Source: a virus (taxonomy: Duplodnaviria > Heunggongvirae > Uroviricota > Caudoviricetes). Taken from it: a stretch of 12,167 nt of DNA. The translations under genes were made by a program, and so were the position numbers. This document shows, piece after piece, positions 1 through 12,167 of this stretch. Below the pieces are notes generated by a model. That model had not been told where the DNA came from. It made no database searches and saw only the letters and a program-made list of their open reading frames with translations. Every line of letters begins with the position of its first letter. The first letter of the stretch is position 1. The stretch covers positions 1 through 12,167 of IMG/VR virus record IMGVR_UViG_2617270997_000007. One strand, 5' to 3'.

Positions 1-31
1 GGTAAATCTTTAAATTCCATCGTCAACCTCA

Positions 32-184
32 TCAGTCGGAGTTTCTTGCTAACCAGCGACGCGCGCCAGCTTCGGTTTTAAACGTTTTGCTTTTGGTATA
101 TGTCATGGCGGTGAATGTGCCGTCCTGGTTGGGGAACACACCACATACCAGAGATTCGCTGTTGCCAAGATCGATAGTATCCAT
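32..184 (-). CDS. Small hypothetical protein (50 aa) downstream of the repressor gene, at the position lambda uses for rex-type accessory genes
   Basis: The track ORF 32..289 begins with TTG and has no Shine-Dalgarno. The in-frame ATG at 184 is preceded on the - strand by GAGG with about 6 nt spacing, giving MDTIDLGNSESLVCGVFPNQDGTF... The longer TTG form cannot be excluded. Confidence 0.35.
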   Translation of the reverse strand: MDTIDLGNSESLVCGVFPNQDGTFTAMTYTKSKTFKTEAGARRWLARNSD

Positions 185-373
185 GCTGACCTCATTACCC
201 CTTAACGCCGGGTAGCGGAACTGTTTGCTGAGAACACCGTGCGGTGTCTTGATGGGTGGTAATTTAGTTTTATCATGAATGTTGGTCAAGCATTTTTAAT
301 GAGAAAACTCAATATTTAATGCAAAATAAAGCCAATACATTGAAATGTAAGGCTTTAAAATTTGTGAAGGGGG

Positions 374-781
374 TTACTGATGTTTGTTACGTTTGCGAGC
401 TTCTAGTAGCTCGGTGAATAGGCGATTAAAATTCTCAACGCGGGCACGGAGTTCGCTGATTTGTGCTTGCTGCTCTGATTTTGGAAGTGCGCGATACAAT
501 CGCAACATCTCCAACTCATCTTCCGATAAGTCTAAGGCGCTGTTGAGTGCTACTGGTGGATCTGGTGTTTTATCCTCGTCACCAAACAGTATCCAAGTTG
601 GTGAACATTGCAATACCTCAGCCAGGCGATGCAAATTTTGCCCGCGCGGGGCTGTATGGTCGCTTTCCCATAGTGAAATTGATGAGCCAGATACGCCAGC
701 GGCTTTGCTTAAATCGTTTTGACTTAAACCAACCTGTTTGCGTCTTTCTCTAATTCGTTGACCTAAAGTTTTCTCGTTCAT
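374..781 (-). CDS. dicA: HTH (XRE-family) prophage repressor, DicA-like, 135 aa, no peptidase S24 domain
   Basis: Complete ORF, MNEKTLGQRIRERRKQVGLSQNDLSKAAG... with the motif LQCSPTWILFGDEDK that I recall from E. coli DicA (also 135 aa). Divergent from a Cro-like gene. Too short to carry a LexA-like autocleavage domain. Confidence 0.8.
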   Translation of the reverse strand: MNEKTLGQRIRERRKQVGLSQNDLSKAAGVSGSSISLWESDHTAPRGQNLHRLAEVLQCSPTWILFGDEDKTPDPPVALNSALDLSEDELEMLRLYRALPKSEQQAQISELRARVENFNRLFTELLEARKRNKHQ

Positions 782-858
782 ATTTAGATATCTTAATAAC
801 CCTTGACTTGAGATTCCTTGAATGATTACTATTGAGAAAACTCAACTTTGGAGGGGTG
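782..858. promoter_or_regulatory. Divergent promoter/operator region between the repressor and Cro-like genes
   Basis: 77-bp intergenic spacer between divergent start codons. TTGACT at 803-808, an 18-bp spacer, then TACTAT at 827-832 could drive the Cro-like gene. GGAGGGG at 850-856 is its ribosome-binding site. Operator half-sites were not resolved by eye. Confidence 0.45.
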
Positions 859-1086
859 ATGTTTAAATCAGACGTAATTAATTTTTATGGGACGAAAGCC
901 AAAGTAGCGAAAGCTGCTGGTGTTGATCCATCTGCTGTTTCTCAATGGGGGGAACTGGTTCCTGAAGGTCGCGCGATGCGCCTGCAAGAGGCATCCGGCG
1001 GGGAACTTCAGTACGACCCCAAAGTTTATGACGAATATCGTAAGGCAAAGCGGGCGGGGCGGTTGAACAATGAAAATCACCCCTGA
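859..1086 (+). CDS. dicC: Cro/DicC-like small DNA-binding protein (75 aa)
   Basis: ATG 859 preceded by GGAGGGG; the track ORF starts further upstream at a TTG (832). Small basic protein divergent from the DicA-like repressor, the classic cro position. Sequence MFKSDVINFYGTKAKVAKAAGVDPSAVSQWGELVPEGRAMRLQEASGGELQYDPKVY... The symbol is from memory of DicC and is not verified. Confidence 0.55.
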   Translation: MFKSDVINFYGTKAKVAKAAGVDPSAVSQWGELVPEGRAMRLQEASGGELQYDPKVYDEYRKAKRAGRLNNENHP

Positions 1087-1621
1087 ACAGGTTTGTGAGG
1101 CTCTGGATGCCTGGGTATGTCGACCAGGAATGACACAGGAGCAAGCGACGATATTAATCACGGAAGCATTCTGGGCTCTGAAAGAACGCCCGAACATCGA
1201 TGTTCAACGCGTCACGTTTAATGATGGCGAGGTTGATCAACGGGCGCTGGGCGTTAACCGGGTGAAGATATTCGAACGCTGGAAAGCTATCGACACCAGG
1301 GATAAGCGGAAAAAATTCACGGCGCTGATTCCGGCAATTATGGAGGCTATCCGAATTAGTGATTTCAGGTTGTATCGTGAGATCAGTGATGGAAAAAGCA
1401 TTACGTACATGATCGCCGGATTAAACAAAGAATATGGCGATGTGGTGGAGTCCGGGCTGCTTTTTGCGGATCCAGCTGTTGTGGAACGTGAGACTGACGA
1501 GCTTATAGAAAAAGCTATTGCTTTCAAGCATGCGTATCGTCAGCAATATCAATATTACTTTGCAGATAAACAAATGTCTGCCAGGGGTTTGTATGAGTAT
1601 CGATGCACTACGATGGGCTAA
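1070..1621 (+). CDS. YdaT-like / CII-position early regulatory protein (183 aa)
   Basis: Complete ORF immediately after the Cro-like gene, overlapping its end by 17 nt. Lambda cII and Rac ydaT occupy this position. The family assignment rests on position and memory, not on a search. Confidence 0.45.
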   Translation: MKITPEQVCEALDAWVCRPGMTQEQATILITEAFWALKERPNIDVQRVTFNDGEVDQRALGVNRVKIFERWKAIDTRDKRKKFTALIPAIMEAIRISDFRLYREISDGKSITYMIAGLNKEYGDVVESGLLFADPAVVERETDELIEKAIAFKHAYRQQYQYYFADKQMSARGLYEYRCTTMG

Positions 1622-2633
1622 AAAGGTGAAAACCGGCAGTTCATCCAGTAAGTCTGTATTGACCTGGCTTGCTGATATGTGCGGTGCCGATTTGTGTGCA
1701 TACCCGTCTGTATCTGCACTGGCAGAAGTAACGGAACTAAACAAAAAGACTGTGCAGGACAGCTTACGACACCTGATGGAGATTGGGTTAATTGTTGATA
1801 CCGGTGAGAGAAAAGGCAGAACAAAGCAAATTGTGGTGTACCGACTTATCGGTGTAGAAGAAAGTGTTGCCGAGCCTGAATACACCCAAAAACGGGAGTC
1901 TTTAAAGGTGGGTAAAATTGGTGCTGTTAATAAAAACAGTACCGAAAATGGTTATGTTTCAGCACAAAACAGACCCAAAAACGGAACTCTTAGCTGCATG
2001 GAAAATAACCAAAGACACCCAAATTTTCCATCAAAGACACCCAAAAACGGATCACGGAACCCAAAGGAACCCAAAGATCTAAACCCCACACATAACGCAC
2101 GCGAGAGTGCTCCGACCAGTGAGCAGGAAGTTTTGTCGTTACAGGCAGCACCCCTTGTATTCCTGGATGGCCTGAGCGAACCCATCGGAAAATTACCGAT
2201 GACCGATAGCTGGTATCCGTCACGGGATTTTCGACGACGGGCTGCGTTGTGGGGGATGGCTTTGCCGGAGACAGAATTTACACCTGCTGAACTTGCCGCC
2301 TTCCGGGACTACTGGGCAGCGGAGGGGAAAGTGTTTACGCAGATTCAGTGGGAGCAGAAATTCGCCCGTCACGTAAATCACGTCAGGGCGCAGGTTAAAC
2401 CAGTCAGCAAGGGGGTAAACCATGCAGCAGCACCAGGTGGCACCGCATCACGGGCAGTTCAGGAAATTCGGGCAGCACGTGAGCAGTGGGAACGTGAAAA
2501 CGGATTTATCAGCGACGGAAACGGTCTGGAAGCTGTGGGAACTCATGGGGGAGGTTTATTCGAACCGCTGGACCCAGAAGAACGGGGCCGCACCTTCGAA
2601 GCTCTGGATTGCACAGATTGGCGCGATGACTGA
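1593..2633 (+). CDS. Phage replication initiation protein (O-like): N-terminal HTH/winged-helix domain, low-complexity linker, C-terminal domain
   Basis: ATG 1593 (MSIDALRWAKK...) chosen over the longer track start at 1518. N-terminus has an HTH-like segment (SVSALAEVTELNKKTVQDSLRHLMEIGLI). The linker is encoded by iteron-like DNA repeats. It lies immediately upstream of a lambda-P-like gene. Confidence 0.6.
   Translation: MSIDALRWAKKVKTGSSSSKSVLTWLADMCGADLCAYPSVSALAEVTELNKKTVQDSLRHLMEIGLIVDTGERKGRTKQIVVYRLIGVEESVAEPEYTQKRESLKVGKIGAVNKNSTENGYVSAQNRPKNGTLSCMENNQRHPNFPSKTPKNGSRNPKEPKDLNPTHNARESAPTSEQEVLSLQAAPLVFLDGLSEPIGKLPMTDSWYPSRDFRRRAALWGMALPETEFTPAELAAFRDYWAAEGKVFTQIQWEQKFARHVNHVRAQVKPVSKGVNHAAAPGGTASRAVQEIRAAREQWERENGFISDGNGLEAVGTHGGGLFEPLDPEERGRTFEALDCTDWRDD
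1966..2078. repeat. Iteron-like direct repeats with an adjacent AT-rich tract inside the O-like gene (candidate replication origin)
   Basis: The 13-mer acccaaaaacgga occurs at 1973-1985 and 2039-2051; caaagacacccaaa at 2010-2023 and 2032-2045; ggaacccaaa in tandem at 2056-2065 and 2066-2075. An AT-rich stretch lies just upstream (1921-1972). Confidence 0.4.
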
Positions 2634-3087
2634 GCAGCAAATCCGACAGGTCTGCCGCCAGTGCATGGACCGCTGCCGGGCGGGTGAAACATGGCCTCCG
2701 GACCTGGCTGAGTTTGTGGCGCTGATTTCAGAAAGCGGGGCCAATCCATTTGGCCTGACGGTGGATGCTGTGATGGAGGAGTACCGCCGCTGGCGTGATG
2801 AGTCCTGGCGATATGACGGAAGCGACAAATATCCGTGGCCTCAGCCTGTGCTGTACCACATCTGCCTCGAAATGCGTACCAGAGGGATTGAGCGCCAGAT
2901 GACGCAGGGTGAGTTAAAACGACTTGCGGAACGGCAACTGACGAAATGGGCAAAGCATGTTGGTAACGGGATGAGTGTTCCGCCAGTGCGACGACAACTG
3001 GAAGGGGCGAAACACCCGCAAGGGCCAACGCCAATTGAACGGCTGAAACAGGAATACGAACGCCGGAAGGCAGCTGGTTTTATTTGA
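2422..3087 (+). CDS. Replication protein P-like (DnaB helicase loader), 221 aa
   Basis: C-terminal two-thirds aligns by eye with lambda P as I remember it: PPDLAEFVALISE to PSPGQFVAWCREE, and YDGSDKYPWPQPVLYHIC...GELKRLAERQL to YPDAESYPWKSNAHYWLV...AELRRKAADEL. ATG 2422 has a strong AGGGGG site 7 nt upstream. Alternative starts are 2545 and 2626 (ATGACTGA overlapping the O-like stop). Confidence 0.7.
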   Translation: MQQHQVAPHHGQFRKFGQHVSSGNVKTDLSATETVWKLWELMGEVYSNRWTQKNGAAPSKLWIAQIGAMTEQQIRQVCRQCMDRCRAGETWPPDLAEFVALISESGANPFGLTVDAVMEEYRRWRDESWRYDGSDKYPWPQPVLYHICLEMRTRGIERQMTQGELKRLAERQLTKWAKHVGNGMSVPPVRRQLEGAKHPQGPTPIERLKQEYERRKAAGFI

Positions 3088-3120
3088 ATCTGAGAAACGA
3101 TTTTGTCGGAGGAAATTTTA

Positions 3121-3891
3121 ATGGAAACCGTATTTGACGCACTGAAAGCAATGGGAAAAGCCACATCGGTAGAACTGGCCGCGCGACTTGATATCAGTCG
3201 TGAAGAGGTTCTCAACGAGCTGTGGGAACTCAAAAGAAATGACGTCGTTGATAAAACTGGTCACACCTGGTTTCTGGCTGGCGAAGGTGAATCCCGGGTA
3301 ACCGAAGAGCGGCCAGTAAAATCTGAAGCACAGGATATGCTGACCGGAGAGGTCGAACAAAAAGTTACCGCAGACATGATGATTGAGTTTATCGGTCAGG
3401 ATGGTGCTAAAACGTGTGAGGAACTGGCGGGTAAGTTCGGCGTCAGTACTCGCAAGGTTGCCTCCACGCTGGCGGTGGTAACCGCAATGGGGCGGCTGGC
3501 ACGCGTTAATCAGAACGGTAAATTTCGTTACTGCATGCCGGGCGATAATTTACCAGCAGAGCCGAAAGCCGCGCTGGTAACGGAAAGTGATGGTAAGGCC
3601 TTTCCTCAGCCAGCAGGTGCTGCGTTACCAGTCCGGGAAGCCGCAACACAGGAAGAAATTAAAACAGAAACTGTGGCGGACATTGTGCAGCCGTTGCCAT
3701 CGTTTACCGAAACGCAAGCAGATGAGCTGATTTTTCCGTCCCTTCGCAGGGCAAACCTGGCGCTGCGCAGGGCGAAAAGTGATGTTCAGAAGTGGGAGCG
3801 AGTCTGCGCCGCGCTGCGGGAGCTGAACAAGCACCGGGATATTGTTCGACAGATTACTGATTCTTCCCGCCGTGTTGTATCGGAAAAGTGA
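3121..3891 (+). CDS. Hypothetical protein with two winged-helix-like segments (256 aa)
   Basis: ATG 3121 with GGAGG 8 nt upstream; the track ORF starts at TTG 3103. Two HTH-like stretches: [26 protein letters not shown] and [31 protein letters not shown]. First gene of a coupled operon. Confidence 0.6.
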
Positions 3892-3906
3892 TTGCCGGAG
3901 GCGCTT

Positions 3907-4299
3907 ATGGCAAAAGTATTTACACCAGAAGAGCGGGAAGAAGTGAAGGCGCGCATTGTGGAATTCGTGCGCCTGAGCGGACGAGAAACTTTTCGACAAC
4001 TGGCAGATAAAACGGGTGTCAGTAAGACCGCTATTCGTCGTTTATCTGGTGCGCTTGCGGCCAGTGGTGATGTCTGGCTCTCTGGTTGCGGGGTATTTCC
4101 ATCAGAGCAGGCGTATCGCGTATGGCGTAAGACACCGGAGAAGGCTGCTGACCCGACACTGATTCGAAAGTTACCTGACGGAGAAATACGTCGTTACAAC
4201 AGACGGCAGAACATAATTTTTCGTGAGTGCCGCCAGAGCGAAGTTATGCAGCGTGTGCTGGCGTTCTATCGGGGAAACTTTCAGGAGGTGATGGAGTGA
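3907..4299 (+). CDS. Hypothetical protein with an HTH-like segment (130 aa)
   Basis: ATG 3907 with GGAGG 5 nt upstream; the track ORF starts at TTG 3892. Contains FRQLADKTGVSKTAIRRL. Its stop TGA 4297-4299 overlaps the next gene's GTG start. Confidence 0.55.
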   Translation: MAKVFTPEEREEVKARIVEFVRLSGRETFRQLADKTGVSKTAIRRLSGALAASGDVWLSGCGVFPSEQAYRVWRKTPEKAADPTLIRKLPDGEIRRYNRRQNIIFRECRQSEVMQRVLAFYRGNFQEVME

Positions 4300-4592
4300 G
4301 GGTCAGAGTTTATATTGCCGGTCCAATGACGGGATATGAAAATTTCAACCGTGAGGCGTTTCACAAGGCGGAAGAGGAACTGAAACGGGAAGGGCATACC
4401 GTCTTAAACCCGGCAGTACTTCCGGACGGGCTGACACAGCCGCACTACATGGATATTTGCATGGCAATGATTCGTTGTGTGGATGCGATTTACATGCTGA
4501 ATGGCTGGCAGCGGTCAGCGGGCGCTAAGGCAGAGCTGGCACTGGCGGAGAAACTGGGGCATGCAGTGATTTATCAGGAGGTGGCTCAATGA
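4296..4592 (+). CDS. DUF4406 / nucleoside 2-deoxyribosyltransferase-like small protein (98 aa)
   Basis: GTG 4296 with AGGAGG 7 nt upstream and a GTGA start/stop overlap. Motif VYIAGPMTGYENFN, then a conserved acidic region, as in the deoxyribosyltransferase/Rcl-like fold. Assignment is from motif memory. Confidence 0.55.
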   Translation: MRVRVYIAGPMTGYENFNREAFHKAEEELKREGHTVLNPAVLPDGLTQPHYMDICMAMIRCVDAIYMLNGWQRSAGAKAELALAEKLGHAVIYQEVAQ

Positions 4593-5056
4593 GAGAGGTT
4601 AACTATGAGGCGCTTCGTGAGGCAGCACAAAACTATCAGTCGACGCTGGCGTGGTATCAGGCTATCCCGGACAGCCCAAATGCTGAACGGGATTGTGATG
4701 CGGCTCTTGCTGCATTTAAGCGTCACATCCGTCATCGGGAAGCGGATATTATCGCTGATTTGCTGGATGGACTGGAAGAAGCAAAATCACAACTCAAAGA
4801 GCAGCGTGAGTATTACGAAGGCGTTATCTCTGATGGGAGCAAGCGTATTGCTGAACTGGAAGCGCGGGAAGTTCAATTACCGACTCGCTACGACCTTCGA
4901 TATGGACACCCGATAAATGCAGATGAGCGACATGTCATGATACCTAAAGAAAATGGCAGTTGGCTTTACCTGATTGACCTAGAACACGCATTACGCGTCT
5001 CTGGCATTCGCATCAAAGGAGAGGAGCATGGAAATAAAACCCAGAGGATGAGTTAA
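4589..5056 (+). CDS. Hypothetical phage protein with a predicted coiled-coil region (155 aa)
   Basis: ATG 4589 overlaps the upstream stop (ATGA), with GGAGG upstream. No recognisable catalytic motif. Confidence 0.6.
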   Translation: MREVNYEALREAAQNYQSTLAWYQAIPDSPNAERDCDAALAAFKRHIRHREADIIADLLDGLEEAKSQLKEQREYYEGVISDGSKRIAELEAREVQLPTRYDLRYGHPINADERHVMIPKENGSWLYLIDLEHALRVSGIRIKGEEHGNKTQRMS

Positions 5057-5086
5057 GCAATATCGTTTTATTTCCGGTAAAAGAGG

Positions 5087-5385
5087 ATGACCCTCGTAAT
5101 CAGGTTAATTTTCTTTATGAGCCATCGGAAAGACCATATTGTCATCACGCCTCTGTCCGGGTTGACGAAAAAGAGCGTCAGGTCCGCTGTAAAATCTGCG
5201 GTGCAGTTGTGGAGCCATTTGACTGGATGCTCTCTGTGGCGAAAAGAGAAACCAGACTGGCAGATGATGTAAGGCACTTGCGCCAGGAGGAGCGGGAAAG
5301 GCGAAAAAATATAGAAAAGCTAATTCAGATTGAGCGTAACGCGAAAGCGCGGATACGCAGGGCGACAAAATCCAGAACTGAATAA
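5087..5385 (+). pseudogene. Zinc-ribbon/coiled-coil ORF with a disrupted start: open frame 5038-5385 has no ATG/GTG/TTG before 5209. Possible frameshift at the T-run 5109-5116 or non-canonical initiation
   Basis: Frame-1 translation is protein-like over about 115 codons: ...NQVNFLYEPSERPYCHHASVRVDEKERQVRCKICGAVVEPFDWMLSVAKRETRLADDVRHLRQEERERRKNIEKLIQIERNAKARIRRATKSRTE*. It fills an otherwise empty 420-bp gap in a tightly packed operon. The only upstream ATG (5087) is in another frame. Confidence 0.3.
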
Positions 5386-5454
5386 TTAAATTTAGCTCTG
5401 TTAAAAATTTAATCCTTAACCGGAGGGATTTCTGCACCCTCAGAACATCAGGAG

Positions 5455-5472
5455 GCCGCCCGAAAGGGCGGT
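5455..5472 (+). promoter_or_regulatory. GC-rich hairpin with GAAA loop between the Shine-Dalgarno AGGAGG (5450-5455) and the ATG at 5479
   Basis: Stem ccgccc (5456-5461), loop gaaa, stem gggcgg (5466-5471), plus a possible G-U closing pair 5455/5472. No U-tract follows, so it is not a typical terminator. Folding would bring the SD from 23 nt to about 7 nt from the start codon. Confidence 0.35.
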
Positions 5473-5478
5473 AGTTAA

Positions 5479-5661
5479 ATGCGAAAGTTTAAAATAATTA
5501 TTGAAACGGGAATAGCCGGTGGAGATTTCGAGGATGAATTCGAAGTGGATGATGATGCGACGCCTGATGAAATACATGACGAAGCAAAAGATATTTTCTT
5601 TAACTACTGCAATTACTCATATCACGAAATAAAAGACGAAGAGGAAGAGCAAAATGGCTGA
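5479..5661 (+). CDS. Small, highly acidic protein (60 aa)
   Basis: MRKFKIIIETGIAGGDFEDEFEVDDDATPDEIHDEAKDIFFNYCNYSYHEIKDEEEEQNG: about 40% Asp/Glu. Complete ORF in the coupled operon. Confidence 0.55.
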   Translation: MRKFKIIIETGIAGGDFEDEFEVDDDATPDEIHDEAKDIFFNYCNYSYHEIKDEEEEQNG

Positions 5662-5830
5662 TTTTGGTTCAACTAAATACAACGTCAGTTTTGAAGCATG
5701 GCATGAACTGTTAATGGACTATGCAGAGTTACGTGGTGGCAGTGCTGCTGATGCTGAAGCATGGCGTGATGATTATGAAGCAGGAAAAACTCCGGTCGAA
5801 GCATATTGTGATGAGTGGGGCGATGAATGA
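5654..5830 (+). CDS. Small acidic protein (58 aa), not in the supplied ORF track
   Basis: ATG 5654 with GAGGAAG 6 nt upstream, overlapping the previous stop. Translation MADFGSTKYNVSFEAWHELLMDYAELRGGSAADAEAWRDDYEAGKTPVEAYCDEWGDE*. Its stop TGA 5828-5830 overlaps the next ATG at 5827 (ATGA). Confidence 0.45.
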   Translation: MADFGSTKYNVSFEAWHELLMDYAELRGGSAADAEAWRDDYEAGKTPVEAYCDEWGDE

Positions 5831-6342
5831 GCGAGATTAATTATCAGGAAGGGCATGAAACGGCAGGGCAGGCAAAACCAGTTGCATGGCGATATCGCTA
5901 CGTGAAAAAAGACGTTACAGACTTTCAGGGGAAGCCGTGGGCTGGTGACTGGAAATATGTACCGACAAAAGAGGATTGTAACGACAGGCCGAACTATGAA
6001 ATTCAGGCCTTATTCATCGGCCCGCCAGTCCCGGTGACATCAGAAGGACTGGTTAAAGCCGTGCGCTTTTATGAACAGGTAAAGCGTGAGAATCCGCCAG
6101 TCGAAACAGGAGCATGGAAGGATGCTGTTGACTGGGTGCTCAGAGAGGCCTGCTGCGCTGCCATTCTGGGTAAAGCCGACAATCCACCAGCATCCGGCAA
6201 TCAGGTTAGCGAATTAACAATGTGGGTTAAACGACTGGTCAGTCAACTGAAAAAAGCTCAGCCGGACTGCAAATTACCGGAGAAGGCGATGGATTACCTG
6301 AAACGAAATGGACTGATAAGCGTGGAGGATGTTTTACGATGA
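5827..6342 (+). CDS. Hypothetical phage protein (171 aa), last gene of the coupled operon
   Basis: Complete ORF with ATGA coupling to the upstream small ORF. No recognisable motif. Confidence 0.6.
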   Translation: MSEINYQEGHETAGQAKPVAWRYRYVKKDVTDFQGKPWAGDWKYVPTKEDCNDRPNYEIQALFIGPPVPVTSEGLVKAVRFYEQVKRENPPVETGAWKDAVDWVLREACCAAILGKADNPPASGNQVSELTMWVKRLVSQLKKAQPDCKLPEKAMDYLKRNGLISVEDVLR

Positions 6343-6462
6343 ATATTTAGACTAAAGAGTTTGTAACGCTATGTAAGTGATTTTTTCTGGTTTAGATATT
6401 TATATGTTCGGCCAAATTGAGGTGTGTTTAAATGTTATTGCACATTGATTGTAGGGGGAATA

Positions 6463-6642
6463 ATGAAAAACGCATTGCAGTTTTTGTTTGTTGCGTTCTG
6501 GTTGTTCGCATCATGTATGCCCATCATCTTCACAGCAAGGTATATGGAAAAAATTGATGTTTTGATATTAATGTTTGGACATATAAATGCCCTTTTTTTA
6601 GGGGTGTTCATGGCGGTCATGTGCATTGAATACTGGCGGTAA
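6463..6642 (+). CDS. Small hydrophobic membrane protein (59 aa, two predicted TM helices) in an AT-rich moron
   Basis: ATG 6463 with GGGGGA just upstream; the track ORF starts at GTG 6424. Sequence MKNALQFLFVAFWLFASCMPIIFTARYMEKIDVLILMFGHINALFLGVFMAVMCIEYWR. The surrounding region 6343-6660 is visibly AT-rich compared with its neighbours. Confidence 0.45.
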   Translation: MKNALQFLFVAFWLFASCMPIIFTARYMEKIDVLILMFGHINALFLGVFMAVMCIEYWR

Positions 6643-6784
6643 ATACAGCGAACGCCATTGGTTTAGTTGGATATTTACTGTGCCGGACAAAAACGGTTTG
6701 CGGGGAAATCTTAGTTAAGTAGAATAACTGCGGGTGCTTGAGGCTATCTGTCTCAGGCATGAACACCAAAAGGCAGATAGAGAA

Positions 6785-6851
6785 AAGCCCCAGTTAACAT
6801 TACGCGTCCTGCAAGACGCTTAACATTAATCTGAGGCCATATCTATGCGAC
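6785..6851 (-). ncRNA. sok: Sok-like antisense RNA of the hok locus (approximate position)
   Basis: Expected by analogy with hok/sok loci. A candidate - strand promoter has TTGACC (complement of 6882-6887), an 18-bp spacer and TAATCT (complement of 6858-6863), directing transcription leftward across the hok leader. The 3' end is not defined. Confidence 0.25.
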
Positions 6852-6904
6852 ACATAGAGATTAGCCTCTTACGGACCGAAAGGTCAAGGAGAAGCAGGCT
6901 ATGA
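6845..6904 (+). CDS. Mok-like short upstream ORF (19 codons) coupled to hok
   Basis: ATG 6845, translation MRHIEISLLRTERSRRSRL*, with stop TGA 6902-6904 overlapping the hok ATG (ATGA). Too short to judge on composition alone. Confidence 0.25.
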   Translation: MRHIEISLLRTERSRRSRL

Positions 6905-7056
6905 AGCAGCAAAAGGCGATGTTAATCGCCCTGATCGTCATCTGTTTAACCGTCATAGTGACGGCACTGGTAACGAGGAAAGACCTCTGCGAGGTACGAA
7001 TCCGAACCGGCCAGACGGAGGTCGCTGTCTTCACAGCTTACGAACCTGAGGAGTAA
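6901..7056 (+). CDS. hokD: Hok/Gef-family type I toxin (51 aa), HokD/RelF-like
   Basis: Translation MKQQKAMLIALIVICLTVIVTALVTRKDLCEVRIRTGQTEVAVFTAYEPEE*, which matches Hok-family toxins and, as far as I recall, E. coli HokD closely. AAGGAG lies 9 nt upstream. Absent from the ORF track because it is under 60 aa. Confidence 0.85.
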   Translation: MKQQKAMLIALIVICLTVIVTALVTRKDLCEVRIRTGQTEVAVFTAYEPEE

Positions 7057-7126
7057 GAGACCCGGCGAGGGAGAAATCCCTCGCCACCTCTGATGTGGCA
7101 GGCATTCTCAACGCACCCGCACTTAA

Positions 7127-7150
7127 CCCGCTTCGGCGGGTTTTTGTTTT
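7127..7150 (+). terminator. Rho-independent terminator at the 3' end of the hok transcript
   Basis: Stem cccgc / loop ttcg / stem gcggg followed by tttttgttttt. A separate perfect 9-bp hairpin (ggcgaggga-gaaa-tccctcgcc, 7064-7085) lies just after the hok stop and may be the 3' fold-back element of hok mRNA. Confidence 0.75.
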
Positions 7151-7272
7151 TATTTTCAACGCATTTGAAGTTCTGGACGGTGCCGGAATAGAATCAAAAA
7201 TACTTAAGTAGCGCGCAGGGATAAGAGGGATGGTCCCTTAAAGGGGAGAGCTAATTATCCGGAAGGATTCTG

Positions 7273-7524
7273 ATGATGAACATCGAAGAACTGCGTAAAA
7301 TTTTTTGTGAAGATGGCCTCTATGCTGTGTGCGTTGAAAATGGAAATATTGTTAGTCATTACCGCATTGTGTGTTTGCAAAAAAATGGGGCTGCGTTAAT
7401 TAATTTTGTGGATGCCCGAGTGACGGACGGATTTATCTTGCGCGACGGTGAGTTTGTCACTTCATTACAGGTATTGAAAGAGATCGGAATAAAAGCTGGC
7501 TTTTCTGCTTTTTCAGAAGAATAA
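7273..7524 (+). CDS. rem: Rem-like small protein (83 aa)
   Basis: Complete ORF with GGAAGGA 5 nt upstream of ATGATG. Same size and position (between hok and the DUF968 gene) as rem in the K-12 Qin prophage. Symbol is from synteny and size, not sequence recall. Confidence 0.4.
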   Translation: MMNIEELRKIFCEDGLYAVCVENGNIVSHYRIVCLQKNGAALINFVDARVTDGFILRDGEFVTSLQVLKEIGIKAGFSAFSEE

Positions 7525-7590
7525 ACTCATCTACAATCTTGCGCGGGGCTGAACTCCCGCTGAGTAACACCGTGCCACCGGAGAAAACCG

Positions 7591-7869
7591 ATGGCACGCA
7601 ACGCAAAATATTACAAACATGATAATTCGACCGTTCTTGCCCACACGCACGAGCGGTATTCTCACGCATTTAAGTCAGACTGGTACCAGCATCCCCCATG
7701 CACTGAAGAACAGGCCGAATGGCTCATTCAGTGTTACCGCAGGCGCGGATGCGAGGTTAAAAAAGCCCTTAGCCTCGACTACCGTCACTGGATAATCTCC
7801 GTCAGGCTTCCTTACTCCGAACGCCCACCGCGTCTGTCCCGCACATTCCAGCAACGCATCTGGAGGTAA
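7591..7869 (+). CDS. Hypothetical phage protein (92 aa)
   Basis: Complete ORF with GGAG 8 nt upstream. Its stop lies 1 nt before the GTG start of the DUF968 gene. Confidence 0.55.
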   Translation: MARNAKYYKHDNSTVLAHTHERYSHAFKSDWYQHPPCTEEQAEWLIQCYRRRGCEVKKALSLDYRHWIISVRLPYSERPPRLSRTFQQRIWR

Positions 7870-7870
7870 C

Positions 7871-8917
7871 GTGCGGGTATTACTTCGACCTGTTCTGGTA
7901 CCGGAACTCGGGCTGGTGATCGTTAAGCCGGGCCGTGAATCCATGCCGGTATTCCACAATACCCGGGTACTGGTGGAGCCGGAACCGAAAAGCATGCGTA
8001 ATCTGCCGTCCGGGGTCGTTCCTGCCGTTCGCCAGCCGCTGGCGGAGGATAAATCATTACTGCCATTTTTCAGCGACGAACGAGTGATTCGTGCTGCTGG
8101 TGGCGCTGGCGCATTGTCTGACTGGTTACTGCGCCATGTTAAATCCTGCCAGTGGCCACACGGCGATTATCACCACAGTGAAACCGTCATTCACCGTTAT
8201 GGTACCGGCGCAATGGTGTTGTGCTGGCACTGCGACAACCAGCTGCGCGACCAGACCTCCGAATCACTCGGGCAACTTGCTCACCAAAACCTGTCTGCAT
8301 GGATGATTGACGTCATACGCCATGCAATGAATGGCTCGCAGGAACGGGAATTATCGCTGGCTGAATTATCCTGGTGGGCGGTCCGCAATCAGGTGGCGGA
8401 CGCGCTACCGGAAGCGGTATTACGTCGTTCGCTGGGGTTGCGTGCGGAAAAAATCCGCTCAATGTACCGTGAAAGCGACATCGTACCGGGAGAGCAGACC
8501 GCCACCAGCATACTGAAGCAGCGCACAAAAAATCTTGCGCCGCTGCCTCACGCCCACCAGCAAAACCCGCCACAGGAAGAGACGGTGGTCAGCATTGCCG
8601 TTGATCCTGAGTCTCCGGAATCTTTCATGAAACGACCTAAACGTCGCCGCTGGGTTAACGAGAAATACACACGCTGGGTGAAGACACAGCCGTGTGCGTG
8701 TTGTGGTAAGCCAGCCGACGATCCCCATCACCTGATTGGTCATGGTCAGGGCGGAATGGGGACAAAATCTCACGATATTTTCACGCTACCGCTGTGTCGG
8801 GAGCATCACAACGAGCTTCATGCGGATCCTCTGGCGTTCGAAGAAAAGCATGGTTCTCAGGTTGATTTAATTTTTCGTTTTCTTGATCACGCCTTTGCAA
8901 CTGGCGTGCTTGGGTAA
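7871..8917 (+). CDS. ydfU: DUF968-family protein (YdfU-like, 348 aa) with a C-terminal HNH-like zinc-finger motif
   Basis: GTG 7871 with GGAGG upstream. C-terminus CACCGKPADDPHHLIGHGQGGMGTKSHDIFTLPLCREHHNELH has the CxxC...HH...H...C..HH..H pattern of HNH nucleases. Size and position match Qin YdfU from memory. Confidence 0.6.
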   Translation: MRVLLRPVLVPELGLVIVKPGRESMPVFHNTRVLVEPEPKSMRNLPSGVVPAVRQPLAEDKSLLPFFSDERVIRAAGGAGALSDWLLRHVKSCQWPHGDYHHSETVIHRYGTGAMVLCWHCDNQLRDQTSESLGQLAHQNLSAWMIDVIRHAMNGSQERELSLAELSWWAVRNQVADALPEAVLRRSLGLRAEKIRSMYRESDIVPGEQTATSILKQRTKNLAPLPHAHQQNPPQEETVVSIAVDPESPESFMKRPKRRRWVNEKYTRWVKTQPCACCGKPADDPHHLIGHGQGGMGTKSHDIFTLPLCREHHNELHADPLAFEEKHGSQVDLIFRFLDHAFATGVLG

Positions 8918-8929
8918 AAGAGGTGACTG

Positions 8930-9304
8930 ATGCTCATAGATTTGGTTTTACCTTACCCGCCGACGGTGAACACTTACTGGCGACGCCGTGGCAGCACATA
9001 TTTTATCTCGGAGGAGGGAAAGCGTTATCGCCGGGCTGTGGCGCTTATTGTTTGCCAGCAGCGGCTGAAATTAAGCCTGTCCGGAAGGCTGGCGATAAAG
9101 GTGATTGCAGAGCCACCGGATAAGCGTCGTCGCGACCTGGACAATATCCTGAAAGCACCGCTGGATGCGCTGACGCATGCGGGAGTGTTAATGGACGATG
9201 AGCAGTTTGATGAAATCAATATCGTTCGTGGTCAGCCAGTATCTGGTGGACGTCTGGGGGTGAAGATTTACCCCATAATGCATGAAGAGCAGGTCAAAAA
9301 ATGA
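8930..9304 (+). CDS. rusA: RusA crossover-junction endodeoxyribonuclease (Holliday junction resolvase), 124 aa
   Basis: Motifs PYPPTVNTYWRRRG, RRRDLDNILKAPLDALT and MDDEQ line up with the RusA signature (WPPSNNRYY, RRRDLDN, DD.Q). AGAGGTGA upstream. Confidence 0.85.
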   Translation: MLIDLVLPYPPTVNTYWRRRGSTYFISEEGKRYRRAVALIVCQQRLKLSLSGRLAIKVIAEPPDKRRRDLDNILKAPLDALTHAGVLMDDEQFDEINIVRGQPVSGGRLGVKIYPIMHEEQVKK

Positions 9305-10122
9305 AACTGGAAGATTTACCGAAATACTACTCCCCAAAATCCCCTGGCCTGACCGATGCATCGGCCTCAACGTCAAAAGATGCGCTGAGTATCACTGATG
9401 TGATGGCCGCGCAGGGCATGACACAGAATCGGGCTGAGATGGGTTTTTCTGCGTTCCTGGGGAAAATGGGCATCAGTATGAATGACAGGGTGCGGGCAAC
9501 AGAATTACTGGCAGATTATGCACTCAGTCGGTGCGATCGTGTGGCGGCGTTGAGAAAACTTCCGGCAGAAATAAAACCGGTAGTGATGCGCATTATGGCT
9601 TCGTACGCTTTTGAGGATTATGCCCGCAGCGCAGCGAGTAAAAAGCAGTGCCCTTGTTGCTATGGGGAAAAATTTATTGAAAGCATAGTTTTTACAAACA
9701 AGGTCCAGTATCCGGATGGTAAGCCGCCGGTATGGGCAAAGTGTACGAAAGGTGTGTATCCGTCTTACTGGGAAGAATGGAAAAAAGTCAGGGAGGTGGT
9801 AAAAGTTGCCTGTCCGGAGTGTGGCGGAAAGGGTGAGGTTTCCACCGCCTGTAAGGATTGCCGTGGGCGTGGTGTCGCCATTCACCGTGAAGAGTCGGTA
9901 AAACGTGGTATGCCTGTTATCAGAGACTGCCAGCGTTGTGGTGGTCGTGGCTATGAAAGACTACCATCAACGGAGGCATTTAATGCTATATGCGAGGTGA
10001 CAAACCAGATAACACGCGCGTCATGGGAAAAAACAGTTAAGAAATTCTATGATGCGCTGGTGACCCGGTTTGATATTGAAGAAGCATGGGCTGAGCGGCA
10101 GTTAAAAAAGGTAACTAGGTAA
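9301..10122 (+). CDS. Late-gene antitermination protein Q-like (273 aa) with CxxC zinc fingers
   Basis: ATG 9301 overlaps the rusA stop (ATGA). Cys-rich C-terminal region CPECGGKGEVSTACKDCRGRG...CQRCGGRGY. Sits directly upstream of a lambda-type PR', the canonical Q position. Confidence 0.6.
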   Translation: MKLEDLPKYYSPKSPGLTDASASTSKDALSITDVMAAQGMTQNRAEMGFSAFLGKMGISMNDRVRATELLADYALSRCDRVAALRKLPAEIKPVVMRIMASYAFEDYARSAASKKQCPCCYGEKFIESIVFTNKVQYPDGKPPVWAKCTKGVYPSYWEEWKKVREVVKVACPECGGKGEVSTACKDCRGRGVAIHREESVKRGMPVIRDCQRCGGRGYERLPSTEAFNAICEVTNQITRASWEKTVKKFYDALVTRFDIEEAWAERQLKKVTR

Positions 10123-10128
10123 CAAGGT

Positions 10129-10156
10129 TGATTTTTCCGGAATCTGTGGTAAATTC
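10129..10156 (+). promoter_or_regulatory. Late promoter PR' (lambda-type), with the downstream pause-region motif
   Basis: -35 TTGATT (10129-10134), 16-bp spacer containing TGg, -10 TAAATT (10151-10156), then cgtcataacgATGGG. Lambda PR' as I recall it is TTGACT ... TAAATT tgactcaacgATGGG, so the -10 and the aacgATGGG block are shared. Confidence 0.6.
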
Positions 10157-10204
10157 GTCATAACGATGGGCCTTTTATGCCTGACGTTAGAAGAGTTTCT
10201 ACAA

Positions 10205-10229
10205 CCCGCCGCCGAGCGGGTTTTTTATT
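10205..10229 (+). terminator. Rho-independent terminator about 50-65 nt downstream of PR' (tR'-like)
   Basis: Stem cccgc (10206-10210), loop cgccga, stem gcggg (10217-10221), then tttttt. Confidence 0.6.
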
Positions 10230-10264
10230 GCGGAATTAATTACGGACCGTTATTATTCTGCTCC

Positions 10265-10340
10265 CGGCCCTTTAGCTCAGTGGTGAGAGCGAGCGACTCA
10301 TAATCGCCAGGTCGCTGGTTCAAATCCAGCAAGGGCCACC
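10265..10340 (+). tRNA. ileZ: tRNA-Ile2 (anticodon CAU, lysidine type; formally also readable as Met), 76 nt with encoded CCA
   Basis: Cloverleaf folded by hand: acceptor ggccctt/aagggcc, D-stem gctc/gagc, anticodon loop ctCATaa, T-arm gctgg-ttcaaat-ccagc, discriminator A, CCA. Near-identical to E. coli ileX as recalled. Confidence 0.85.
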
Positions 10341-10347
10341 ATCACAT

Positions 10348-10424
10348 ACCGCCATTAGCTCATCAGGAAAGAGCGCCAGCCTTCGAAGCTGGTTGCGCGG
10401 AGTTCGGGTCCCCGAAGGCGGTCC
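10348..10424 (+). tRNA. argN: tRNA-Arg (anticodon UCG), 77 nt, with non-canonical features
   Basis: Anticodon arm ccagc-ctTCGaa-gctgg is perfect and D-stem gctc/gagc is good. The acceptor stem has one A-A mismatch at pair 6, the T-stem has one A-C mismatch, and the T-loop is ttcgggt (G where the conserved A58 is expected). CCA is encoded. Confidence 0.6.
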
Positions 10425-10437
10425 ATTATCTGTATCC

Positions 10438-10514
10438 TGCGTTGTTAGCTCAGCCGGACAGAGCAATTGCCTTCTAAGCAATCGGTCACTGGTTCGAATC
10501 CAGTACAACGCGCC
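10438..10514 (+). tRNA. argO: tRNA-Arg (anticodon UCU), 77 nt with encoded CCA
   Basis: Clean cloverleaf: acceptor gcgttgt/acaacgc, D-stem gctc/gagc, anticodon arm attgc-ctTCTaa-gcaat, T-arm actgg-ttcgaat-ccagt, discriminator G, CCA. Confidence 0.85.
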
Positions 10515-10529
10515 ACACTTATTTTCCCT

Positions 10530-10552
10530 GGCTCGCTTTTGCGGGCTTTTTT
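10530..10552 (+). terminator. Rho-independent terminator after the tRNA cluster
   Basis: Stem ggctcgc (with one G-U pair), loop tttt, stem gcgggc, followed by a 7-nt T-run. Confidence 0.6.
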
Positions 10553-10557
10553 TTAAA

Positions 10558-10770
10558 TGTCTCACAATTCAGGCGGTTGACTGTTGTCTGGTTTGCGGGG
10601 AGTTTGTTAAAAGAAACTGGCATGGTGAATCCCCCTGTGCGGAGGGGCAATCAGCGAGTAGGTATATGGGATAATCGCGGATTCAGGTGCTGGTACTGAA
10701 TTCACCGGGAGGCACCCGGCACCATGCAATGGCACATAGCGCCACTCTCCAGCCCCTCTCCGGAGGGGCT
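10558..10770 (+). repeat. Structured repeat module A: promoter-like -35, two conserved GC hairpins and a terminal terminator hairpin (candidate small RNA or leader cassette)
   Basis: Shares ordered blocks with module B: ctcacaattcag; TTGACT (10574-10579); tttgttaaaa; hairpin cccct-gtgcgg-agggg (10629-10644); hairpin ccggg-aggca-cccgg (10702-10716) followed by ATG; terminator gcccctc-tccg-gaggggc (10749-10766) plus tttt. Confidence 0.6.
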
Positions 10771-10964
10771 TTTCTGTGCCGGATACATCACAGTTTCTGG
10801 AACCTTAGGTACTACAGTATCAGTCAGGGTGCTATATTTTCAGATGTGATGAAAGCCTGTCAGCAGGCAGGGCGTATCGGAAATGACCCAGTAGAGAAAA
10901 CGTTGACTCAGATACCGGTGCTGAGTTACCGGGAAACCGGCATCACATGACCGCTATCCTTCCA

Positions 10965-10991
10965 GGCCCATCCGCTCCGGTGGGCCTTTTT
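10965..10991 (+). terminator. Rho-independent terminator between the two repeat modules
   Basis: Stem ggccca (10965-10970), 10-nt loop, stem tgggcc (10981-10986), then ttttt. It closes a short unit containing a possible 33-codon ORF at 10849-10950, which has no convincing Shine-Dalgarno and is not called. Confidence 0.45.
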
Positions 10992-11028
10992 ACTGCAGAA
11001 AACAGGTTCCCCGTTAAATGCTATGTTG

Positions 11029-11262
11029 CTCACAATTCAGTAAGTTGACAGTTGCCTGTCAGACTGGGCATTTGTTAAAAAAATTTCGCATGGTGAATCC
11101 CCCTGAGCGGAGGGGCGACTGGTGACGGTATAATCTCTGATTATCAAAACGAGAATGACGCGGGTTTAGTGGCACCGGGCTGAACTCACCGGGAGGCACC
11201 CGGCACCATGTGCATGATGATACAGATACGCGGCTTTAGCCCCTCTCCGGAGGGGCTTTCTT
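11029..11262 (+). repeat. Structured repeat module B, paralogous to module A
   Basis: Same blocks in the same order: ctcacaattcag (11029-11040); TTGACA (11045-11050); tttgttaaaa; hairpin ccccctgagcggagggg; a TATAAT at 11129-11134; caccgggaggcacccggcaccATG; terminator gcccctc-tccg-gaggggc (11239-11256) plus T-tract. It has about 20 bp of insertion relative to A. Confidence 0.6.
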
Positions 11263-11267
11263 ATGGA

Positions 11268-11297
11268 CAAAAAAAGCCCGCGCTGGGAGACGCGGGC
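11268..11297 (-). terminator. Minus-strand intrinsic terminator immediately after module B
   Basis: On the + strand an A7 tract (11269-11275) precedes the hairpin gcccgcg-ctgggaga-cgcgggc (11276-11297). Read on the - strand this is hairpin plus U-tract. No convincing - strand gene lies upstream of it. Confidence 0.4.
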
Positions 11298-11490
11298 GGC
11301 AAGGAATAAACAATAAAACGTGAAGTAATATTTCAGCTGGCGAATAATACCCCATAGTAATCACTCTGCGCAACTGCGCGGTCTTTTTCGAATTGCGGGC
11401 TGTAGTCTCCCTTCTGCCATTGTCCTGTAACTTCCGGACTTCAGCCTGCTCCTTATCTGACTCACAACATTATCCCGCCCGGGAGGATTC

Positions 11491-11679
11491 ATGGCATTTA
11501 AACACTATGACGTGGTCAGGGCGGCATCGCCGTCAGACCTTGCGAAACGACTGACACAAAAACTGAAGGAGGGCTGGCAGCCGTTTGGTAGTCCGGTGGC
11601 CATAACCCCTTATACCCTGATGCAGGCGATTGCAGCAGAAGGTGATGTGGTGGTCAGTGGTGCAACTGAGCCGGAGTGA
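11491..11679 (+). CDS. DUF1737-like small protein (62 aa), commonly found just upstream of lambdoid lysis cassettes
   Basis: Complete ORF with GGGAGG 5 nt upstream. Translation [62 protein letters not shown]. Family assignment is from memory of position and size. Confidence 0.55.
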   Translation: MAFKHYDVVRAASPSDLAKRLTQKLKEGWQPFGSPVAITPYTLMQAIAAEGDVVVSGATEPE

Positions 11680-11837
11680 TACTACGTCATCGTACTGGCC
11701 CGGCATTCCAGGCCATAAAAGACGGTCTGGCAGTGGGACTAAATGCACTGACGCTGACGGATATTACCAAAAATGCAACGTATGGCGTTGAGATAGAAAG
11801 TCTGGTGCTGGAGATAAATGCACCGGCATCATCATAA
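11676..11837 (+). CDS. Possible small ORF (54 codons, GTG start) coupled to the DUF1737-like gene; not in the ORF track
   Basis: GTG 11676-11678 overlaps the upstream TGA (GTGA). Translation [53 protein letters not shown]. The upstream ribosome-binding site is weak. Confidence 0.3.
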
Positions 11838-11921
11838 AAAGTGAGCCAGTCAAATGGAAGGTATCGTTAAACTCACCGGTAGTGTCAGTGGGTCGTCTGA
11901 GACGCCTGCATGAGTTATCAG

Positions 11922-11950
11922 AGCCATCAGTACTTAACTGGTGGCTTTTT
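11922..11950 (+). terminator. Rho-independent terminator 28 nt upstream of the holin start
   Basis: Stem gccatcag (11922-11929), loop tacttaa, stem ctggtggc (one G-U pair), followed by ttttttatt. Confidence 0.55.
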
Positions 11951-11977
11951 TATTGTTGTCAGCTTCCGGATAACGGG

Positions 11978-12167
11978 AGACGGGGTATGTACCAGATGGA
12001 AAAAATCACAACAGGTGTGTCATACACCACGTCAGCGGTGGGAACGGGCTACTGGTTCCTGCAGTTGCTGGACAGGGTTTCCCCGTCTCAGTGGGCGGCA
12101 ATAGGCGTGCTGGGGAGTCTGCTGTTTGGGCTGCTGACATATCTGACTAACCTGTATTTCAAAATCA
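11978..12167 (+). CDS. S: Class II holin (phage 21 S21-type pinholin), 3' end cut off by the window
   Basis: Translation [60 protein letters not shown]... resembles S21 as recalled ([63 protein letters not shown]...). Two in-frame starts at codons 1 and 4 (ATG 11978 and 11987). No stop before position 12167. Confidence 0.8.

Follow-up and report, generated by a model that had tools for sequence, protein, structure and literature searches.

A DUF968 (YdfU-type) gene with a predicted HNH nuclease domain and a small upstream companion gene in a Qin-like lambdoid nin region

The viral sequence IMGVR_UViG_2617270997_000007 (Caudoviricetes; positions 1 to 12,167 of that IMG/VR record, 12,167 nucleotides (nt), hereafter the window) exhibits at positions 7591 to 8917 of the + strand two adjacent open reading frames (ORFs), a small ORF of 92 amino acids (aa) and a 348-aa ORF corresponding to the DUF968 protein YdfU of Escherichia coli K-12. 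We analysed this locus together with its flanking genes. The window is the nin region (from the replication genes to the late-gene antiterminator Q) of a Qin-like lambdoid E. coli prophage. On balance we favour the reading that the YdfU-type protein, acting as a zinc-stabilised HNH nuclease, forms with its small companion and RusA, a resolvase of Holliday junctions, a recombination or DNA-processing module of this region.

The 348-aa ORF (7871-8917, + strand, GTG start; WP_001265091) belongs to the Pfam family DUF968 (PF06147), the cutoff of which (27.8 bits) it exceeds with a score of 256.7 bits over residues 160-345 (E = 1.4e-76). It also matches over its full length (residues 1-347, E = 1e-176) the family phrog_96, which is already labelled 'HNH endonuclease'. 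Its C-terminal part exhibits the pattern C275-A-C-C278, H286-H287, H291, D302, C309-R-E-H312-H313-N-E-L-H317 (window 8693-8821). Both the CxxC...CxxH arrangement of the zinc-finger HNH subclass (C275/C278 and C309/H312) and the catalytic set of the His-Me finger nucleases (H286-H287, D302, H313/H317) are found in it. C275, C278, C309 and H312 are the predicted zinc ligands, and H287 (or H286), D302, H313 and H317 the predicted catalytic or metal-binding residues. The original prediction, made from the sequence alone, had noticed this HNH-type spacing and assigned it to the last 45 or so residues. The spacing is indeed present, at residues 275-317, but the assignment to the very end of the protein does not hold, as about 30 helical residues follow.

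An exhaustive search of representative sequences returned 3112 relatives, among which full-length homologues are found at identities as low as 26%. An alignment of 29 homologues (26-85% identity, collinear over residues 1-347) shows C93, C118, K257, C275, D302, P307 and G328 to be invariant; the remaining positions of the C-terminal motif are kept in most of the 29 sequences, the HH pair in 26. Judged from this alignment, the conservation of the Cys/His pattern is far beyond chance. All aligned homologues, the 26%-identical ones included, share one start methionine, and this speaks for GTG as the start codon of the DUF968 gene. Several unusual architectures were set aside: fusions of the N-terminal domain to tail, portal or capsid domains (P0263, P0308, P0309, P0245, P0288) look like chimeras of prophage decay or misassembly, and the long homologues P0001, P0002, P0003 and P0005 contain internal duplications that are probably assembly artefacts. 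Rare read-through fusions to the Q antiterminator (P0045, P0046 and P0053; 607 aa) occur in a few contigs each, and in P0011 (441 aa; few contigs) the first 11 DUF968 residues are replaced by a sigma-70 region-4-like helix-turn-helix.

An AlphaFold model built on the 29-sequence alignment (mean predicted local distance difference test score, pLDDT, 86.6) suggests a protein made of three parts. The N-terminal domain (residues 1-155; 7871-8335, +), which constitutes a PHROG of its own (11007), is confidently modelled and had no structural relative detected. It carries a second Cys/His motif, C93-Q...Y-H101-H102...L-C118-W-H-C121-D-N (window 8147-8239), the conserved form of which is CQ...Y(C/H)H...LCWH(H/C)DN. 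A helical segment (residues 160-190, LSLAELSWWA...LP) and a disordered linker (about 191-252) make up the middle part (8348-8626, +), with pLDDT values of 42-66 across residues 190-240. Within residues 209-257 (window 8495-8641) lie the motifs RESD and VDPE.PE.FM.RPK, of which K257 is invariant and P256 conserved in at least 90%; a protein of the host or phage might dock on these short peptides. The linker also holds a basic stretch immediately before the third part, the putative nuclease domain of the His-Me finger (HNH) type (residues 253-348; 8627-8914, +). Here the model exhibits a beta-beta-alpha unit at residues 284-318, with strands at 284-287 and 305-308 and a helix at 310-318, as in the beta-beta-alpha-metal fold. 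The comparison of profiles and structures with HNH endonucleases that had been proposed as a check, with the absence of such a fold named as grounds for rejection, thus found the fold in place. Together with the phrog_96 label and the sequence homology to phage phiNM1 Gp16 described below, it sustains the proposal of an HNH-like C-terminus. The N-terminal domain was also considered as a second, degenerate HNH domain: residues 60-158 align in register but weakly with the C-terminal domain (hhalign probability 2.6%), the N-terminal domain gives a weak BLAST alignment with Gp16 (E = 0.08), and fold searches give no backing to this idea.

The small gene (7591-7869, +; RefSeq WP_001405664, 'hypothetical protein') ends with a TAA at 7869; a single C at 7870 separates it from the GTG at 7871, precisely the 1-nt gap noted before. 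A GGAGG at 7862-7866 falls within TGG AGG, the final pair of sense codons in the small gene, the whole junction GGAGG-TAA-C-GTG occupying 7862-7873 (+). The junction sequence ATCTGGAGGTAACGTG is identical in five further loci compared, despite synonymous differences elsewhere. The same 1-nt spacing is kept in loci where the small protein is only 70% identical and the upstream neighbours differ, in agreement with the suggestion of a two-gene unit. Both the conserved junction and the Shine-Dalgarno sequence inside the last codons argue for translational coupling, and the two genes are probably coupled and made together. As TGG AGG provides the Shine-Dalgarno sequence for the GTG, it partly explains the conserved terminal W-R of the small protein. 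Promoter and terminator scans around the pair gave nothing better than shuffled sequence.

The other possibility raised at the outset, that the two ORFs are halves of a split gene, is ruled out. No DUF968 homologue has an N-terminal extension, the start methionine being common to homologues down to 26% identity. The proposed look for fused homologues yielded a single in-frame case, the K-12-like protein P0044 (85% identical), which comes from one contig only and is consistent with a 13-nt deletion. Programmed frameshifting finds no support either: DUF968 is read in the +1 frame with respect to the small ORF, and this frame stays open for 25 codons upstream, but a slippery heptamer is absent.

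The 92-aa ORF is a genuine protein-coding gene, separate from DUF968. Codons 27-92 (7669-7866) encode a conserved core of about 66 aa with a predicted beta-alpha-beta-beta fold and the tail LPYSERPPRLSRTFQQRIWR, and codons 1-26 (7591-7668) a variable, disordered N-terminal tail. Over the core, the ratio of nonsynonymous to synonymous changes (dN/dS) is 0.06-0.26, with a proportion of synonymous differences (pS) of up to 0.54, so that strong purifying selection identifies the ORF as a real gene. Codons 1-26 carry in-frame indels and appear almost neutral (dN/dS of 0.6-1.7). Consistently with this partition, phrog_1212 matches residues 27-92 (E = 3e-35), and in the AlphaFold model residues 1-28 have pLDDT values near 30 and the core has values of 81-86, the conserved tail being of low confidence. 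Neither Pfam, NCBIfam nor PADLOC gave a match for the small protein, and for the DUF968 protein NCBIfam and PADLOC gave none. Its close homologues form 147 clusters (90-92 aa, 64-98% identity) in Escherichia and Shigella only, the genera to which the matches of a contig scan with exact peptide patterns were also confined. A wider family was seen by tblastn against phages: with a 67-aa homologue as query, matches came from 59 phage records spread over the Enterobacterales. Homologues of 36-48% identity retain the tail motif LPxSE..PR..R..Q+.W at the protein level. E. coli K-12 MG1655 possesses an intact 92-aa copy between rem and ydfU (NC_000913.3, complement 1644306-1644584; L020 2807-3085, minus strand) with the same 1-nt junction, and no coding sequence (CDS) is annotated there. 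One GenBank record, that of vB_EcoS-640R1 (ON470612; L039 2423-2701), labels the small ORF 'toxin to Rem', and a literature search found no paper behind this label. A small ORF of 88% identity also occurs within a prophage segment of E. coli type on a scaffold assigned to a Veillonella parvula metagenome-assembled genome, probably a mis-binned contig.

A His-Me finger nuclease gene lies directly downstream of the small-gene family in 13 of the 18 sampled prophage and phage loci, and this nuclease belongs to any of three Pfam families: DUF968, YbcO and NinG. At a spacing of 4 nt or less, NinG/Rap follows the small gene in Gifsy-2, SPN3UB and Edwardsiella GF-2, YbcO follows it in mEp237, Cronobacter phiES15 and a Klebsiella phage, and DUF968 follows it in the window. 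The 67-aa homologue overlaps the start of DUF968 both in a metagenomic locus (53%-identical DUF968) and in a Klebsiella phage. The upstream neighbour takes at least eight different identities across the sampled loci. In Escherichia it may be rem, ParDE, BOF protein, DUF6414 or others, while the pair, rusA and Q stay together; LexA-like genes are also met upstream of the small gene where it goes with DUF968. In NinG- and YbcO-type phages it is often Orf/NinB-like (DUF1367 or YbcN), and the order Orf/NinB-like gene, small gene, His-Me nuclease gene is seen in many enterobacterial phages (seven loci).

These observations make a functional partnership between the small protein and the nuclease plausible. 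We tentatively propose, as something possible rather than probable, that the family of about 66 aa is a dedicated and hitherto undescribed accessory or regulatory subunit (an inhibitor, chaperone or specificity factor) common to the YdfU/DUF968, YbcO/DUF1364 and NinG/Rap nucleases of enterobacterial lambdoid phages and made by translational coupling. If this were true, E. coli K-12 would carry an unannotated functional subunit gene upstream of ydfU. Plain synteny is a serious rival, and we give it a substantial, if minority, share of the probability. The small gene would then be a mere neighbour in the nin region with its own function, for instance DNA or RNA binding in recombination, the close spacing would be no more than the usual gene packing of phages, and the W-R/G kept at the C-terminus would stem from the ribosome-binding site within the gene, with which the last codons TGG AGG do coincide. 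Exceptions to the adjacency, which come from the most divergent loci, fit this rival and tell against a partnership. Dcm and NinF lie between the small gene and NinG in Erwinia vB_EhrS_59, and four genes separate them in Pantoea PA-1; in the Ravinviruses PY54 and YDC107_1 the neighbour of the small gene is a DEDDh 3'-5' exonuclease or an unknown ORF. Nor is the small gene always present: distant DUF968 genes (38-44% identity) lack it and are preceded by an antirepressor gene. Lambda rap presumably has no small gene upstream, and Sharples et al. are said to have found lambda Rap active alone. Against mere neighbourhood stand the recurrence of the downstream His-Me nuclease, in those 13 loci and across its three families, while the upstream position is so variable, and the preservation of the tail motif at the protein level in the divergent homologues.

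A further possibility is that the pair constitutes a toxin-antitoxin-like, nuclease-immunity or prophage defence/exclusion cassette, in which the small protein would neutralise a toxic HNH nuclease set free by infection or stress. The arrangement, a nuclease gene with a small ORF coupled to it on the upstream side, recalls type II toxin-antitoxin operons, host toxicity is on record for the relative Gp16 (PMC12817073), and the pair sits among toxin-antitoxin genes (hokD in the window, relBE in Qin, ParDE in locus L002). Cryptic prophages have kept the region, to which 4564 of 5426 E. coli genomes show a match, and the 'toxin to Rem' label may be added to this side. We nevertheless consider such a cassette improbable. 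Neither protein matches PADLOC or a Pfam toxin-antitoxin family, the pair lies ahead of rusA and Q at a conserved position of the nin region and not in a moron-type insertion, and NinG, a recombination enzyme for which no toxicity is known, has the same small protein encoded before it. In E. albertii CP117575 (L010 3281-4338) a frameshift in the linker divides DUF968 into ORFs 3281-3925 and 3952-4338 with the upstream small ORF and the downstream rusA intact, the reverse of what addiction to an antitoxin would lead one to expect, though not decisive; the DUF968 sequence of this genome also has H317 replaced by Y.

Several results count against the nuclease reading itself. The window protein remains below threshold for Pfam HNHc_6 (PF16784; 22.4 bits against a cutoff of 26.6, residues 270-318 only). 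The Pfam scan also gave it no match to RecA_dep_nuc (PF16786), YbcO (PF07102) or NinG (PF05766), so that RecA or branch specificity would be a matter of analogy only. Sequence searches of the PDB returned sub-threshold matches only, the top one being 3g27 (E = 0.86): the full protein brought up nothing but spurious C2H2 zinc fingers, and domain profiles gave matches below threshold. The literature searched contained no experimental work on either YdfU or YbcO. Finally, the divergent branch of P0326, P0340 and P0367 has kept the four zinc cysteines and lost the HH pair and the equivalents of H312 and H317, and another branch (P0278, P0306, P0337, P0330 and P0364) has kept the histidines and lost C278, most members C309 as well. 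Catalysis or the zinc site thus seems to have been lost more than once in the DUF968 family, in which activity would not be universal.

The branch without catalytic histidines is also what one would expect if the C-terminal domain were a non-catalytic zinc finger or DNA-binding module and YdfU a regulator. A transcriptional-regulator annotation exists for one family member (PMC5714182), and in Gp16 single mutants of the catalytic histidines relieve the phenotype partly, whereas zinc-ligand mutants abolish it (PMC12817073). This possibility appears quite unlikely for the window protein, in which every catalytic and zinc position is kept, D302 being invariant and HH nearly so in the alignment, and the closest structural and sequence relatives of which are active nucleases. 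Still less credible is a packaging-associated enzyme (helping the terminase in cos cleavage) or a selfish homing HNH endonuclease, as the gene lies in the early nin region by rusA and Q with no terminase gene beside it in the sampled loci, its surroundings are stable in gene order, and it does not interrupt any other gene.

Returning to the nuclease reading, the C-terminal domain would be a beta-beta-alpha-metal HNH/His-Me finger of the lineage of YbcO, P1 Ref and phiNM1 Gp16. The DUF968 gene fills the slot held by NinG/Rap in lambda and by YbcO in DLP12, which makes a DNA-nicking or branch-processing endonuclease its most likely product. Such an enzyme would be made from the delayed-early transcript and would act on phage or host recombination or replication intermediates, upstream of resolution by RusA, possibly on RecA-bound or branched DNA by analogy with Ref and Gp16. 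The N-terminal domain and the basic linker may provide targeting. The small protein, translated just ahead, plausibly modulates or assists the nuclease, perhaps through physical interaction.

The surroundings of the pair are those of a Qin-like nin region. The rusA gene (8930-9304, +; PF05866, E = 5e-17; phrog_34) adjoins DUF968 as originally noted, a synteny with which a role in DNA processing is consistent, and Q (9301-10122, +; PF03589, E = 2e-54) marks the end of the nin region. Upstream of the small gene lies rem (7273-7524). A stretch of 2.2 kb is 100% identical to E. coli chromosomes, where the RefSeq CDSs match exactly (hypothetical protein, DUF968 domain-containing protein, RusA, antitermination protein). 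This identity, the shared annotation and the rem/92-aa ORF/ydfU/Q layout of K-12 Qin establish the assignment of the region. The 4564 genomes mentioned above are those, among 5426 complete E. coli genomes, with some match to this 2.2-kb region, which is also found in temperate phages, including Stx2a (Shiga toxin 2a)-converting phages, where the gene is labelled ydfU. YdfU-type genes are thus among the most widespread E. coli prophage genes, and in Stx-converting phages they adjoin the Q switch controlling toxin expression. Further upstream are the type I toxin gene hokD (6901-7056; PF01848) and, 3' of it, a terminator-like hairpin (7125-7142); related prophages carry other toxin-antitoxin or moron genes in this neighbourhood (ParDE, relBE, BOF, PemK). 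Three tRNA genes lie just 3' of Q (10266-10515), with a CAT anticodon (Met according to ARAGORN, Ile according to RefSeq), Arg-TCG and Arg-TCT. Such a trio downstream of Q is typical for Stx-type lambdoid prophages.

The nearest known system is that of K-12 itself. YdfU (b1560, in Qin) is an orthologue of the window protein, with the same domain order and motifs (348 versus 349 aa in length). Qin resembles the window in having rem upstream, Q downstream and the 92-aa ORF with its 1-nt junction before ydfU. It differs in lacking rusA, which in the window stands between DUF968 and Q, and in its small ORF being unannotated, whereas the window copy is annotated in RefSeq. The function of DUF968 had been called unestablished in the original prediction. 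This holds for the biochemistry of YdfU, but not for its classification: a zinc-finger HNH motif was noted in DUF968 by Curtis et al. in 2014 (PMC4118853), Jablonska et al. in 2017 placed DUF968 with DUF1364/YbcO in group 7 of the His-Me finger superfamily, naming YdfU and its RusA and Q neighbours (PMC5714182), and a relative has been characterised (PMC12817073). Family membership and fold assignment being already published, our findings leave the basic classification of YdfU unchanged. Their residual value lies in the biochemistry of a common prophage gene and in the companion family, an unstudied one that includes an apparently unannotated K-12 ORF under purifying selection and tracks three nuclease families.

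Among the other members of the superfamily, YbcO of DLP12 (DUF1364, PF07102; PDB 3G27) is a bare nuclease domain of 96 aa, to which YdfU adds about 250 N-terminal residues; the similarity of YbcO to the window sequence is the sub-threshold one given above. The structure-specific endonuclease NinG/Rap of lambda (PF05766), likewise a His-Me finger protein (PMC5714182), is the counterpart of YdfU by position, its gene lying in the nin region ahead of Q. No sequence match was detected between NinG/Rap and the window protein, and the NinG genes of Gifsy-2, SPN3UB and GF-2 are preceded by the same small-protein family. Rap resolves and nicks branched DNA unaided, and phages with NinG are usually without rusA. 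P1 Ref (PDB 3PLW, PF16786) is an HNH endonuclease that depends on RecA and has no structured N-terminal domain; the basic stretch in the linker of YdfU is reminiscent of its basic N-terminal segment, and the RecA_dep_nuc match is the one missing from the window protein. Ref has been linked to phage-enhanced antibiotic lethality.

The closest characterised relative is Gp16 of the Staphylococcus aureus phage phiNM1 (L021 4052-4723), described in a 2026 paper as a NinB-like domain joined to an HNH domain, a protein that introduces nicks into DNA and binds to RecA, with toxicity for the host and a promoting effect on lytic growth (PMC12817073). Pfam places Gp16 in HNHc_6, and its DUF968 score exceeds the cutoff as well (29.1 versus 27.8 bits). 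Its HNH domain exhibits 39% identity over 59 residues with the window protein (BLASTP E = 1e-9; hhalign probability 94.9%), the two sharing the motif C-x2-C-GKP...LCREHHNExHA. C275/C278 and C309/H312 of the window protein align with C145/C148 and C181/H184 of Gp16, and its catalytic histidines with H157, H185 and H189; the Gp16 residues mutated in that study correspond to C278, C309, H312, H287, H313 and H317. Both Gp16 and YdfU are encoded by early-region phage genes, and phiNM1 has its rusA about 3 kb downstream in the same region. The two differ at their N-termini, that of Gp16 being NinB/Orf-like and that of YdfU unrelated, with no NinB Pfam match and no match to the 1PC6 fold. The neighbouring Orf/NinB-like and His-Me nuclease genes of enterobacterial phages are separate-gene counterparts of this NinB-HNH fusion of a Gram-positive phage. 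As both Ref and Gp16 are RecA-linked nucleases, the comparison provides a concrete, testable hypothesis for a y-gene of K-12.

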